From assembly GCA_965217895.1 (NCBI GenBank), contig CBDCJV010000002.1:2176001-2240000 (forward strand): DNA of 64,000 bases, read 5' to 3'. The notes under the pieces are model-generated. The model searched no databases. It worked only from the letters and a program-made list of their open reading frames with translations, and had not been told where the DNA came from. Source of the stretch: Waterburya sp. GTDB lineage: Bacteria; Cyanobacteriota; Cyanobacteriia; Cyanobacteriales; Xenococcaceae. Position numbers and translations under genes: made by a program. Shown piece by piece: positions 6,637-11,560 of this stretch. The stretch's first letter is position 1, and every line of letters begins with the position of its first letter.

Positions 6637-8106
6637 CTAATTTGAACGAGAGTTATCTGCTACTAGGTTAATATATCTTGAACGTGCTGGTTGAAAATCG
6701 GGCTTGATTTCTAAAGATTTTTCATAGCTGACAATTGCTTCTGTCCAATATTCTAATTGTTCTAATCCGCAACCGCGATTGTACCAAAACAAATGATTGG
6801 CTGGCATGAGCTTGAGAGCGTTGTTCCAGCTCATTATGGCTTCTGTCCAATTTTCTAGTTGATATAAAGCATGAGCGCGATCGTTCCAAGCCTGATAATT
6901 ATTAGGATCGATAGTTAAAGCATTTTGAAAAGATTTTACCGCCAACTCATAGTCGCCTAAACGACCTAAGGCACTGCCACGATTGTGCCAAGCTTCTGAC
7001 AAATTGGGGTTTATTTGTAAAGCCTTTTCCCAGGAAGCGATCGCTTTGGTGAATTCTCCTGCACTAACCTGCTTTAGTCCCAAATTAAACCAGCTTTCGA
7101 TTAGATCTATACTAGTGGAATCCAAATCATTGGTTTGTATCGTCTGGGACTGCTCTAACGTTAAGTTGTCCAACTTTACAGGAGAAATATTTAGCTTTTG
7201 AGATATTTGCTGTGCCAATTCTTTGTCTTTTTGAATTAAGCTGATTAGCTGCTGTATATCAATAGCTTCAGCCTCGTCCTCTTTTTGAGGTTCGACAATT
7301 GATGATAAATTGGAGTCTGTTGAGCTTAAATCTAAAGATTTGTTTTCAGATGTATTTGATTTTGCCTCAGTAATAGATTCTGTTTCTTCTTGAGGATCTA
7401 GTTCTTCAGATAAATCCCTAGACTCAGTTAATTCAAATTCGTCCCTTGATAAAGGTATTTCATCTGAAGTTGAGAAATTATAAACAGAAACAGTCGGGGT
7501 AGAATTTTCTTCTAAACTTTCTGTAATATCTGCTGTTAGATTGTCTGCTTCTACAGATGAATTTGATTCTCTAGGAATAGATAAACCTAGTGCCGTAAAA
7601 TCAGTAGGTAATCGGTTAGATAGTTCTTGCTCTGTTTCTACTTCAGAGTCGTCGTTTGTTAAATCAGAACCAACATATTCCCAAATAACATCTTCTGTAT
7701 TGCCAAACAATAATTCTCTGCCAATGTGGTTAGAGATCGTGCCAATCTGCTTGACTTCTGGGGCAGATTGAGTCAGTTCGCCAAGGCGAATCATCATTGT
7801 TCCCAATTGACGCTTAGACTCGATTGGCAGAGTCAATACTCTAGTTCGTAAACGCTCTAGCCAAATAACCCAATCTTCTTGGTTACCGCGATCGCCTAAT
7901 TGGTTAAAAAATTTAACAATTCTGTGATCGTGCCAGCCATGAGCAATTCCTTCTAATAGTTGATTAAATAAAAATTCATAATCAGCATCCGCCAGAGAAG
8001 ATATAGGTGTCTTATCTTCAGGCTTTGGCGAGTCTTGGCTAGTCTCCGAAGCCTTAGAGTTTGGCTGTTGATTGTTTTGTTGGAGTTGTCCGATCGTATG
8101 ACTCAT
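6637..8106 (-). CDS. TPR repeat protein with acidic linker
   Basis: C-terminal TPRs (AWHNRGSALGRLGDYELA, AWNDRAHALYQL, FWYNRGCGLEQL). Confidence 0.85.
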   Translation of the reverse strand: MSHTIGQLQQNNQQPNSKASETSQDSPKPEDKTPISSLADADYEFLFNQLLEGIAHGWHDHRIVKFFNQLGDRGNQEDWVIWLERLRTRVLTLPIESKRQLGTMMIRLGELTQSAPEVKQIGTISNHIGRELLFGNTEDVIWEYVGSDLTNDDSEVETEQELSNRLPTDFTALGLSIPRESNSSVEADNLTADITESLEENSTPTVSVYNFSTSDEIPLSRDEFELTESRDLSEELDPQEETESITEAKSNTSENKSLDLSSTDSNLSSIVEPQKEDEAEAIDIQQLISLIQKDKELAQQISQKLNISPVKLDNLTLEQSQTIQTNDLDSTSIDLIESWFNLGLKQVSAGEFTKAIASWEKALQINPNLSEAWHNRGSALGRLGDYELAVKSFQNALTIDPNNYQAWNDRAHALYQLENWTEAIMSWNNALKLMPANHLFWYNRGCGLEQLEYWTEAIVSYEKSLEIKPDFQPARSRYINLVADNSRSN

Positions 8107-8290
8107 TACCTTAGATCAAATATACTGATTTCAAGAGTTAACATCACCCTGCGATGAAGCCAAACTAATTTCATTTAAAGTTAACAGTTCTTTAACAGAA
8201 CGGCATTGCTTTGAGCCAGCTAAATATTGCTCAACTGTACAAAGATAATTTTCTAGTAACTAGTGGAAAGCCAAAAAATCCACATATAAT

Positions 8291-11200
8291 ATGCCTTACG
8301 AACCTCTTCATCACAAGTACCGACCACAAACTTTTAAAGATTTAGTAGGTCAAGAGACGATTTCCTTGACCCTCAGTAATGCTTTGAAACAGGAAAAAAT
8401 TGCTCCAGCATATTTATTTACAGGACCTAGAGGAACAGGTAAAACCTCTAGTGCTAGAATTCTAGCGAAATCTTTAAATTGTTTAAATAGCAATCAGCCA
8501 ACTCCTGAACCCTGTGGGGAGTGTGAAGCCTGTTTAGCGATCGCCAAAGGTTCGGCGTTAGACGTGCTGGAAATTGATGCTGCTAGTAACACAGGGGTTG
8601 ATAATATTCGCGAAATCATCGAGCGATCGCGCTTTGCTCCCGTGCAGTGTCGCTATAAAATTTATGCGATCGATGAATGTTTGACAGGAGATTCACTTAT
8701 CCAAACTAATGAAGGATTGATGCGAATTGATAATCCTAATCTGAAAGGAAAAATGGTTCTTAGCTATAACGAGAACACAAAAGTATGGGAGTATAAAACA
8801 GTAATACGCTGGCTAGAACAAGGGAGTAAAAAAACTCTAATTATCAAAACTAGCGATAAACAAATTCGCTGCACAGAAAATCATCTCATTCGGACAGAAA
8901 TAGGATGGATCGAAGCAAGAAACGTCAAAGAAGGAATGAAGATACTATCTCCTGCGAGTGTGGATGTGAAACAAGCATTTATAAATATGGGACAGATGGG
9001 CGAACACGCTGATTTGCAACGGGACATCAATTCAAAGGAAATAAATAAAGACATCCATACAAAAAAGGTCATGGAATCTGGGATAAGCGAGGCAGGGATT
9101 TTATCGATTCCTGTCAGCAATTACAAACTGAGCAATTGGGACTCATATACGAAACTTTACTTGGGGATGGAAGCATCGAATACCCAAACTTACATAGCAG
9201 ATTTCCTCGATTGCGCTGGACTCATGGATCAAAGCAGCAAAAATGGATGGAATATAAAGCAAATCGCTTACAACAATTGCGTCCACAGATACAAAATATC
9301 ATCAATCGAGGATATGGCAAAGAATCAACCATTTGCTATACAGCTTGCCACCCTCAACTACAAGAAGTTTGCGAAATTGTTAAGCCAAATGATAAAGGTA
9401 AATTTATCTCATGGGAATGGCTTCAACTTATCACTCCAGAAGGACTTGCGTGGTGGTACATGGATGACGGTTCTCTTCAGCTTACTCCACAAGATAGTCC
9501 CGCAGTCTTTCTTCACACTGAGGGATTTTCTCAAGCAGAAAACCAAATTATTGCTGAATGGCTTACAAATATGGGATATCCTGCCAAATCAAAATCTTAT
9601 ACAAGAAAATCTACCCAAAAAACCTACTACTACGTCAAATTGGGGGCAAAATCTAGTCGAAAATGGTTGTCAGATTTACAACAATACTCAATTCCCTCAA
9701 TGGACTACAAATTTGGAGAAGGTCAAATCTGTAAGCCACGCTGGTCATGAACCTGTCTATGATCTTGATATAGAAGACAATCATAATTTTGTAGCAAATG
9801 ATCTATTAGTACATAATTGTCATATGCTCAGCACAGCAGCATTCAATGCCTTGCTCAAGACTTTAGAAGAACCACCCCCAAGGGTAGTTTTTATCTTAGC
9901 TACTACCGATCCTCAACGAGTTTTGTCCACAATCATTTCTCGTTGTCAGAGGTTTGATTATCGCCGTATTCCCTTGCCAGCGATGATTAGACATTTAAAG
10001 TATATTGCTGGCGAGGAAAATATTGCGATCGCATCATCGGCGATCGCTTTAATTGCCCAAATTGCCAACGGTGGCTTGCGAGATGCCGAAAGCCTTTTAG
10101 ATCAGCTAAGTCTGTTACCAGAAGAAATTTCTGTGGCAAAGGTATGGGATCTTGTCGGGGCTGTACCCGAACAAGATTTGTTAAAACTACTTCAGGTAAT
10201 TAATGGTAATGATTCTTTAGCAGTTTTACAGCAGTGTCGTAGTCTTTTAGATCGGGGACGAGAACCCATAATCGTCTTACAGAATCTGGCTGGTTTTTAT
10301 CTCAACCTACTAATTGCTAAAACTGCCCCTCAGCGTCCAGATATGGTGGCAGTTACTGAAACCTGCTGGCAACAATTATGTACTGAAGCAACAAATTGGA
10401 ATACCTCTGTAATTTTGCGCGGACAACAGCACTTAAAAGAAGCAGAACCTCAGCTAAAGCATACTACCCAGCCTCGTCTATGGCTAGAGGTGACTTTGCT
10501 AGGACTATTGCCGAGTGCCGAGCAAATTGTTAGCCAGCCTCTTGATACAGCTAAAGTCCCAGTTAATTTTCCGAGTATTCAATCTCAGCCAACACCTGCT
10601 CAAAAAAACACCACTAGCTCTAATACCGCTGCGTCGCCAGAAGTTACAGAAACAAAACCTTTAGCTATAGCACCTACAGAGACAAGCAAACAGATAGAGC
10701 CAAGTGAAGTTACATCTTCTTCATCTTATAGTCCTGGAGTAAATAAGGTTGTCGCTCAACTACCTGCTGTTGTTGAACCCACACCACAGCAATCATCAAG
10801 TCCTGAATTAGTCACCAATGACTTTGCCAAAAATAAAGAAATCTGGAGCAAGGTTGTAGCTTGTTTGCAACCACCTACAACTCAGGCACTTTTAAAACAG
10901 CAGTGTTATTTAGTTGACTTTGATGGTTCAAGTGCTATTGTAGGCATTAGTTCTGCAAAATTACAAAAACTTAATCAGGGTAAAATTCCTAATATTGAAG
11001 CTGCTTTTGCTCAGGTTTGTCAACGTAAGGTTAAAGTTCAGTTAGAAGTTGCTACTCCCAAAGATAGCCTCGCACAAAATTCAGCTACACCAAAAGATAA
11101 TAAGCCGCTTCAAACATCTCAACCCGCTCCAGATTTAGGTAATTCTCCCTCAGAAAACAAATCCATAGCACCGCAGCCTGAAACAAATTTAACAATAGCT

Positions 11201-11560
11201 AAAAATTTTCCTAATCATAAGTCAGAATTTCCCAAGCCCGAAGCAAACATTGCTGTAGTAACGCCTTCTTCATCAACGAGTGATTTACAGTCTGCTAAAA
11301 AGAAAGATTCTGTTTCCTCATCTCCTCTAGCTAAATTGGAAGAAACAATAGCTGCAAATCCTCTACCTATTGAGCAAAATTTAAACAGTGATTATACAGA
11401 CAATCATTTACAGCAGGCAATAGATAGCCTGACTCAAAGTTTTGAAGGTGAATTAGTGAAAATGGATAATGCTCAGGAAGAATTTTTAGAGTCTGAAGAA
11501 ATATTAGAGTTACCAGAAGCAGGTAGACCAAACATGGAAGATTATGACGACGAATGGTAA
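8291..11560 (+). CDS. dnaX: DNA polymerase III subunit gamma/tau, intein-containing precursor
   Basis: YEPLHHKYRPQTF, Walker A GPRGTGKT, Zn-finger cysteines, EIDAASN, IDE|intein|CHMLS, FNALLKTLEEPP, SRC motif. Confidence 0.97.
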   Translation: MPYEPLHHKYRPQTFKDLVGQETISLTLSNALKQEKIAPAYLFTGPRGTGKTSSARILAKSLNCLNSNQPTPEPCGECEACLAIAKGSALDVLEIDAASNTGVDNIREIIERSRFAPVQCRYKIYAIDECLTGDSLIQTNEGLMRIDNPNLKGKMVLSYNENTKVWEYKTVIRWLEQGSKKTLIIKTSDKQIRCTENHLIRTEIGWIEARNVKEGMKILSPASVDVKQAFINMGQMGEHADLQRDINSKEINKDIHTKKVMESGISEAGILSIPVSNYKLSNWDSYTKLYLGMEASNTQTYIADFLDCAGLMDQSSKNGWNIKQIAYNNCVHRYKISSIEDMAKNQPFAIQLATLNYKKFAKLLSQMIKVNLSHGNGFNLSLQKDLRGGTWMTVLFSLLHKIVPQSFFTLRDFLKQKTKLLLNGLQIWDILPNQNLIQENLPKKPTTTSNWGQNLVENGCQIYNNTQFPQWTTNLEKVKSVSHAGHEPVYDLDIEDNHNFVANDLLVHNCHMLSTAAFNALLKTLEEPPPRVVFILATTDPQRVLSTIISRCQRFDYRRIPLPAMIRHLKYIAGEENIAIASSAIALIAQIANGGLRDAESLLDQLSLLPEEISVAKVWDLVGAVPEQDLLKLLQVINGNDSLAVLQQCRSLLDRGREPIIVLQNLAGFYLNLLIAKTAPQRPDMVAVTETCWQQLCTEATNWNTSVILRGQQHLKEAEPQLKHTTQPRLWLEVTLLGLLPSAEQIVSQPLDTAKVPVNFPSIQSQPTPAQKNTTSSNTAASPEVTETKPLAIAPTETSKQIEPSEVTSSSSYSPGVNKVVAQLPAVVEPTPQQSSSPELVTNDFAKNKEIWSKVVACLQPPTTQALLKQQCYLVDFDGSSAIVGISSAKLQKLNQGKIPNIEAAFAQVCQRKVKVQLEVATPKDSLAQNSATPKDNKPLQTSQPAPDLGNSPSENKSIAPQPETNLTIAKNFPNHKSEFPKPEANIAVVTPSSSTSDLQSAKKKDSVSSSPLAKLEETIAANPLPIEQNLNSDYTDNHLQQAIDSLTQSFEGELVKMDNAQEEFLESEEILELPEAGRPNMEDYDDEW
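8905..9048 (+). pseudogene. Disrupted N-terminal part (CECGC domain) of the out-of-frame endonuclease
   Basis: Same frame as 9136-9750: MDRSKKRQRRNEDTISCECGCETSIYKYGTDGRTR*FATGHQFKGNK*, with stops at 9010 and 9046. Confidence 0.65.
9049..9750 (+). CDS. LAGLIDADG homing endonuclease overprinted in the -1 frame inside the intein
   Basis: Frame is open from 9049 (first TTG at 9136). Two LAGLIDADG motifs, IYETLLGDGSI and LAWWYMDDGSL, plus LHTEGFS and IPSMDYK. Confidence 0.85.
   Translation, partial: RHPYKKGHGIWDKRGRDFIDSCQQLQTEQLGLIYETLLGDGSIEYPNLHSRFPRLRWTHGSKQQKWMEYKANRLQQLRPQIQNIINRGYGKESTICYTACHPQLQEVCEIVKPNDKGKFISWEWLQLITPEGLAWWYMDDGSLQLTPQDSPAVFLHTEGFSQAENQIIAEWLTNMGYPAKSKSYTRKSTQKTYYYVKLGAKSSRKWLSDLQQYSIPSMDYKFGEGQICKPRWS

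Follow-up and report, generated by a model that had tools for sequence, protein, structure and literature searches.

A cyanobacterial dnaX intein with a broken, probably inactive endonuclease gene in its -1 reading frame

What becomes of a homing endonuclease gene that is written in a second reading frame of an intein, inside an essential gene that has to remain open? This question is raised by the dnaX gene (DNA polymerase III gamma/tau) of the cyanobacterium Waterburya sp., located in a 64,000-nt stretch of its genome that was analysed as a whole and is called the window below (assembly GCA_965217895.1, contig CBDCJV010000002.1, positions 2,176,001 to 2,240,000 of the forward strand; coordinates are those of the window). 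This gene is interrupted by an intein (8678-9817), and a LAGLIDADG endonuclease sequence overlaps the intein in the -1 frame. The reading favored here, and considered likely, is that the intein is a member of the published family of cyanobacterial dnaX inteins, and that its own -1-frame nuclease gene is broken and probably inactive. Comparison with related sequences further suggests that the inactivation is recent, and that this copy has probably been caught early in its decay towards a mini-intein. The dual-coding layout is already published and no new kind of element comes with this window, which is of value as a dated snapshot of the homing cycle, with intact near relatives at hand for comparison.

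The endonuclease gene in the window and in its relatives

The open stretch of the -1 frame had been described, in an earlier note drawn from the sequence alone, as a two-motif LAGLIDADG protein. The domain assignment holds: Pfam places the translation of 9049-9750 in LAGLIDADG_2 (PF03161; E=1.9e-21, 77.2 bits for a cut-off of 25), motif 1 (LIYETLLGDGS) lies at 9142-9174, with its aspartate codon at 9166-9168, and motif 2 (LAWWYMDDGS) at 9445-9474, with the acidic residues of YMDDG at 9463-9468. Both catalytic-motif aspartates are retained in this core, which also gives profile matches to I-SceI and I-WcaI (E=3e-7 to 4e-6). The completeness of the gene does not hold: position 9049 directly follows a stop codon within a broken nuclease gene, and is not a gene start, the gene of the relatives beginning at the equivalent of 8905 and running over ~331 codons.

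Two samples of relatives carry this comparison. When 401 genomes of the phylum were searched with the -1-frame protein, 24 of them gave a match, the genome of the window (G000) counted, and a scan of a contig database gave 143 relatives, of which the best 80 were considered. The 11 near-full-length relatives of the first sample (L002-L012) all share the same dnaX site, the same -1 frame and an intein of exactly 430 aa, with a -1 frame open over 325-354 codons. Among the best 80 loci of the second sample, 78 could be parsed (L028, at a contig edge, and L055 are not in the count), and have inteins of 430 aa (62 loci), 429 aa (5), 376 aa (8), and 452, 394 and 476 aa (one each). When a gene is called intact if its nuclease frame lacks a stop over 318 codons, 56 of the 67 inteins of 429/430 aa harbor an intact gene of ~331 codons, starting at the ATG equivalent to window position 8905.

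This ATG is present in 70 of the 72 unique 429/430-aa inteins, 16 codons ahead of a CxCGCG motif, and is built from a frame-0 GGA-TGG (Gly-Trp) located just past block B of the intein. The GGA codon supplies the A of the ATG in 70 of 72 sequences, a count inflated by their relatedness, and makes up 21% of the glycine codons in the flanking exteins; such a preference points to selection for the start codon. A Shine-Dalgarno-like 4-mer is found upstream of the conserved ATG in 44 of the 72 inteins. In the 331-aa product, the first ~110 residues hold two Cys-rich modules (CxCGCG ... GH), and the LAGLIDADG core follows. Each module is ~45 aa long and their number varies, with one in the 376-aa inteins (8 Pseudanabaena-type loci), two in most sequences and four in one of them (P0032). 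These are presumably zinc-binding modules that contact DNA. A Pfam search with the first 119 aa of an intact relative returned no family (DUF6527 stayed below threshold, E=0.037), and an ESM Atlas search with residues 1-112 gave a best score of 0.79, under the useful range. For the closest intact relative (L027), the nuclease model has a predicted local distance difference test score (pLDDT) of 85.5, with helix 1 at residues 125-136, and its core matches I-SceI and I-WcaI with E ~1e-12 and a target-normalised template-modelling score (TM-score) of 0.73.

How does the window differ from this intact gene? Its first Cys module (8953-8970) reads CECGCE, compared with CECGCG in relatives, and the next lesion, the TGA at 9010-9012, is a nonsense codon derived from CGA where the relatives have an arginine. 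A 150-nt deletion, which appears as a single gap at intein columns 369-519 both against 11 intact inteins and against the four closest relatives plus L002, reduces the intein to 380 aa, versus 430 aa; these 50 codons included Cys module 2 and 20 positions with a conservation of at least 95%. Read in the nuclease frame, the sequence runs ...GRTR, TGA, FATGHQFKGNK, TAA, RHPYKKGHG..., and then enters the core. The set of conserved positions comprises 118 sites (at least 95% conserved among 57 unique intact sequences), and besides the 20 that were deleted in the window, 4 of the 98 retained ones are changed: Gly22Glu, Arg36stop, Gly133Glu and Gly247Asp, as counted from the start Met. At the same 98 positions, the 57 intact sequences show no difference in 35 cases, one in 16 and two to four in 6. 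The change of Gly133, the conserved helix-packing glycine of motif 1, would be expected from this conservation to harm the nuclease. Finally, the open remnant (9049-9750) has neither ATG nor GTG, and the TTG at 9136, equivalent to L027 residue 128 and falling in its helix 1, is the sole start candidate.

The unitigs of two sequencing runs (X1 and X2, from one sample and possibly the data of the assembly itself) show 0 differences from the window over 8661-9865, the TGA, the deletion junction and the Glu codon included, so that the stops and the junction are not read errors.

A separate observation concerns the junction itself: the unitigs of both runs break exactly at 9047, and the bridging unitig (9018-9076) has a depth of 34 versus 45 for its neighbours in X1, and of 209 versus 280 in X2, which hints at a minority variant located at the TAA and deletion junction or next to it.

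Table 1. Features of the dnaX locus and of the overlapping -1 frame (window coordinates)
Feature	Position	Strand	Description
dnaX (DNA polymerase III gamma/tau) precursor open reading frame	8291..11560	+	1089 aa, single open reading frame
Intein	8678..9817	+	380 codons = dnaX codons 130-509; Cys1 to His-Asn
N-terminal splicing (HINT) domain	8678..8965	+	intein residues 1-96, includes block B; pLDDT >90
First endonuclease-gene fragment, -1 frame	8905..9012	+	ancestral ATG 8905-8907, Cys module 1, ends with TGA
Frame-0 linker	8966..9688	+	intein residues 97-337; without family match or predicted fold, pLDDT ~23
TAA, endonuclease frame	9046..9048	+	made at the junction (9046/9047) of the 150-nt in-frame deletion
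Open remnant of the endonuclease gene, -1 frame	9049..9750	+	233 codons + TGA stop 9748-9750
A_AAA_AAG heptamer, dnaX frame	9061..9067	+	12 nt past the last endonuclease-frame stop; candidate -1 slip site
TTG, first ATG/GTG/TTG in the open remnant	9136..9138	+	three codons inside predicted LAGLIDADG helix 1
Glu at the motif-1 Gly (Gly133)	9151..9153	+	GAA; Gly in 57/57 intact relatives, I-SceI and I-WcaI
C-terminal splicing domain	9689..9817	+	intein residues 338-380 (VYDLDIEDNHNFVANDLLVHN); pLDDT >90

The intein in the dnaX frame and selection on the two frames

The assembly holds one dnaX gene (a single match in genome G000), with the Pfam domains DNA_pol3_delta2, DNA_pol3_gamma3 and ATPase lid. 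As already noticed from the sequence, the intein is open across all 380 codons, with 0 stops. Its junctions read ...YAIDE followed by Cys1 (CLTGDS...; 8678-8680) at one end, and ...LLVHN followed by CHMLST at the other, VHN ending at 9817 and Cys+1 occupying 9818-9820, so that all class-1 terminal residues are there. Block B is present as TENH (CTENHLIRT), T66, H69 and H379-N380 are invariant in the aligned inteins, and the block F/G motifs lie within VYDLDIEDNHNFVANDLLVHN. In this frame Pfam recognizes Intein_splicing (E=3.2e-15, 56.7 bits versus a cut-off of 35.8), and the same search gave no other family and nothing nuclease-like, with a weak PT-HINT match staying under its cut-off; the earlier observation that the middle of the intein frame lacks nuclease motifs is borne out. 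The Spl DnaX mini-intein (7cfv) aligns at intein residues 2-93 and 344-380 (E=7.9e-35), and AlphaFold2, run on an alignment of 33 inteins, predicts the two splicing domains on either side of a linker (see Table 1). This linker has to remain stop-free because dnaX must be read through it. The insertion site in dnaX (Walker-B DE, CHML) matches that of relatives L002-L016, whose flanks are of the same type. The window intein is a class-1 HINT intein of the cyanobacterial DnaX family, with every splicing residue retained.

Which of the two frames is under selection in this family? The ratio of non-synonymous to synonymous differences (pN/pS) was computed from 55 pairs of intact 430-aa inteins (L002-L012). 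Outside the overlap, low values are found in frame 0 and high values in the -1 frame: 0.16 and 1.92, respectively, in the N-extein, 0.26 and 1.49 in the N-splicing domain before the nuclease reading frame, 0.08 and 2.18 in the C-splicing domain after it, and 0.18 and 2.36 in the C-extein. Within the overlap, frame 0 is at ~1.0 and the -1 frame is constrained, with 1.03 and 0.34 in the N-terminal part of the nuclease, and 0.97 and 0.40 in its core. Variability also shifts between codon positions: it is highest at frame-0 position 3 outside the overlap and at frame-0 position 2, the third position of the endonuclease codons, inside it. The pN/pS figures are the same when the window is compared with its relatives. 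Among the relatives, these data directly show that purifying selection acts on the dnaX frame outside the overlap and on the -1 frame exactly within it. In addition, when either peptide was recoded synonymously 20000 times, the other frame was never stop-free (mean numbers of stops of 9.1 and 19.9), so that two overlapping open frames are not due to chance. The earlier description of ~700 bp of dual-coding DNA in an essential gene is thus right as to the -1 overprint layout, and has to be amended as to the copy itself, best read as a recently inactivated remnant. Across 8100-9900, promoter-like sites number 6, versus 5.8 expected from shuffles, and a terminator scan found none.

In the genome of the window, the 1089-aa precursor would be translated and class-1 splicing would excise the intein, yielding a 709-aa DnaX; this excision is needed because there is no second dnaX copy. 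Where relatives have an intact gene, the nuclease would be translated independently from its conserved ATG, and the product would cut intein-free dnaX at the DE/CH site, the intein being copied in by repair (homing). In the lineage of the window the nuclease would have been lost, probably recently, and the intein would no longer home, persisting only because nothing short of a precise deletion removes it. Additional losses of multiples of three nucleotides may then produce a mini-intein, as in relatives L013-L016.

Several other sequences resemble parts of this element. Protein databases hold separate "hypothetical protein" or LAGLIDADG entries for the nuclease reading frame (68 matches). One locus (L102, the same place as L009, G192:C11) comes from a record titled as a Sphingobacterium metagenome-assembled genome, yet carries a typical cyanobacterial dnaX intein and belongs to a genome drawn in the sample of the phylum of the window; the title probably stems from an error of labelling or binning. 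In P0056, a nuclease-core relative (41% identity) that stands by itself, helix-turn-helix domains replace the Cys modules, which fits a free-standing nuclease having invaded a mini-intein. P0057, a 531-aa clamp-loader protein, combines an N-extein, an N-intein part, two CxCGCG modules and a LAGLIDADG core in a single frame (31% identity, 92% coverage), and ends at the nuclease end; a relationship to the element as an in-frame or split version is conceivable. Scans of viral and metagenome data for the DNA of P0057 gave distant relatives only.

Timing of the damage and other explanations

The four closest relatives (L027-L030) share 81-85% nucleotide identity with the window over the intein and all have an intact, full-length nuclease gene, which indicates that the damage is specific to the lineage of the window. 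On the branch leading to the window, 14 synonymous and 9 non-synonymous codon changes were counted in the nuclease frame of the core, compared with 43 and 17 in the four closest relatives pooled (Fisher p=0.43), while a neutral expectation of ~75% non-synonymous changes is rejected (p=3e-4). Most of this branch was thus probably spent under selection, and a rough estimate would put its neutral share at ~10%. Nonsense mutations are not restricted to the window, since 11 of the 67 inteins of 429/430 aa carry 1-3 stops in the nuclease frame, versus 0 of 67 in the intein frame. Larger in-frame deletions have left inteins of 264, 339, 285 and 229 aa in L013-L016, and all length changes of the intein are multiples of three because the essential host frame demands it. 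Decay inside an essential gene can proceed only by nonsense or missense changes of the nuclease frame and by deletions whose length is a multiple of three; the window copy, the 11 stop-carrying inteins and this series of in-frame deletions together document the path from a full intein to a mini-intein.

Intein-free alleles exist close to the window. Two genomes of the same genus (G101 and G288) carry dnaX without an intein (...IDECHML), and in the sample itself a contig of X1/X2 joins 8679 to 9821 with one C between them, which is the exact intein-free junction with a TGC Cys codon. The depth of this allele is 27.8 versus ~45 in X1 and 170 versus ~280 in X2, or ~0.6 of the intein allele; it further differs at 8668 and 9832, and the flanking unitig 8606-8652 is common to both alleles. 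It could represent a second strain, or other chromosome copies in the same cells. Regarding co-conversion, no identity gradient was found in the extein flanks (60-nt bins) in comparisons with the same-genus intein-free alleles and those of L027 and L030, L029 being left out since an indel had misregistered it.

Could the truncated core still be a working nuclease? It would be translated from a start inside the remnant (the TTG at 9136 or an unusual codon) into a product of ~204-233 aa devoid of Cys modules, and would still cut intein-free dnaX. Such an activity is unlikely, and yet several observations weigh in its favor and against inactivation. The core is open for 233 codons, with its strong LAGLIDADG_2 match and both motif aspartates kept; the tally of branch changes, mostly synonymous and indistinguishable from that of intact relatives, fits either a recent inactivation or a core still in use; the N-terminal modules may be dispensable, as their number varies in nature down to the intact one-module variant and up to the four of P0032, and as the solved relatives I-SceI and I-WcaI have none; and 2 of the 57 intact sequences likewise differ at 4 conserved positions. 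Other observations speak against a working core. A product starting at TTG 9136 would be without the helix that precedes, aligned to I-SceI residues 22 onward, and there is only a weak GAG upstream of this codon. The invariant glycine of motif 1 is a glutamate, a second glycine conserved at 98% is an aspartate, and the deleted module is the one retained in the natural one-module variant. The presence of the intein-free allele at ~0.6 depth is expected if this allele is not cut, and is uninformative if it resides in other cells.

A much less probable explanation, judged very unlikely, is that the nuclease is produced by -1 ribosomal frameshifting at the A_AAA_AAG heptamer (9061-9067), giving a fusion of N-extein, N-intein and nuclease whose synthesis would be tied to dnaX translation. 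If true, the slip would be the sole route to the open core, the own start of the nuclease being lost. Escherichia coli dnaX makes gamma via A_AAA_AAG, and a tRNA-Lys(UUU) without a CUU counterpart makes this heptamer slippery. The situation here is similar, with one tRNA-Lys (UUU) and none with CUU among the 41 tRNA genes of G000 (Aragorn); the heptamer lies in the dnaX frame, a -1 slip enters the endonuclease frame, and 35 of 57 intact relatives have the heptamer as well. It is nevertheless accounted for by the Tyr-Lys-Lys-Gly that the endonuclease frame conserves, AAA being the common codon, and is most likely a mere by-product of the conserved Lys-Lys. Upstream of the heptamer there is no Shine-Dalgarno-like element, the only downstream hairpin begins at a distance of 23 nt and is no more stable than those of shuffled sequences (z=-0.36), intact relatives possess their own conserved ATG, and a frameshift fusion would still carry the Gly-to-Glu change.

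Lastly, it is hardly credible that errors of sequencing or assembly produced the out-of-frame layout, or the stops and the deletion, and hide a nuclease that is really in the intein frame, given that nothing in favor of it was found for the window, that the same -1 layout recurs in the 11 of 11 near-full-length relatives, from independent assemblies, and in the 67 full-length inteins among the best 80 of 143 relatives, that the frame-specific selection and the unitigs of two runs over 8661-9865 speak against it, and that a search limited to longer proteins found no dnaX with this nuclease in frame (6 matches, all in other host genes). Errors or mutations of this type do occur elsewhere: two short metagenome gene calls (P0051 and P0054) have one reading frame that runs from the dnaX frame via the linker into the nuclease core, through frameshifts that are either errors or genuine mutations, the latter of a kind that would disrupt dnaX.

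Comparison with known systems

The probably inactivated copy of the window can be placed in a family that is already described. A bioRxiv preprint by Phillips, DeSimone and Gogarten (10.64898/2026.09.14.751524; September 2026), part of whose text is available here, reports a "+2 ORF" (open reading frame) LAGLIDADG gene in the cyanobacterial dnaX intein, and credits Gorbalenya 1998 with the first proposal of this arrangement (Synechocystis, Ssp DnaX), so that the earlier note was justified in calling the architecture rare and known rather than new. It reports an AlphaFold3 model of the nuclease that resembles I-WcaI, frame-dependent selection detected by FUBAR on 123 sequences, and putative Shine-Dalgarno motifs, expression being otherwise left unsettled in that part of the text; the statement that nuclease expression is not established is in line with this. 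The window element and the intein of the preprint share the host gene, the insertion site, the family, the shifted frame and an I-SceI/I-WcaI-like nuclease fold, as well as the frame-dependent selection, reproduced independently here through pN/pS. Unlike the family as described in the available part of the preprint, the nuclease of the window has two stops, a 150-nt deletion and a Gly-to-Glu change in motif 1. In that same part, alleles are sorted into full, mini and intein-free only, and the words 'zinc', 'stop codon' and 'pseudogene' are absent, which indicates that, to this extent, the preprint does not describe half-decayed intermediates or the CxCGCG modules. The path from a full intein to a mini-intein is inferred there, as far as the available text goes, from phylogeny only.

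Among individual inteins, the Spl DnaX mini-intein (7cfv) has the same end residues as that of the window, in a length of 137 aa without insert, whereas the window intein has a 241-residue unfolded linker bearing a nuclease remnant in another frame. The two-motif core of the window family is that of I-SceI and I-WcaI, which are monomeric LAGLIDADG_2 nucleases encoded by introns. In contrast to the window family, these are free-standing intron reading frames that do not overlap another coding frame and are without CxCGCG modules, and their motif-1 residue is a glycine, compared with the glutamate of the window. Canonical PI-SceI and in-frame LAGLIDADG_2 inteins likewise combine HINT and LAGLIDADG in the service of homing; in these, however, the nuclease is an in-frame domain of the intein, while the family to which the window copy belongs encodes it separately, in a -1-frame gene that overlaps an unstructured in-frame linker.

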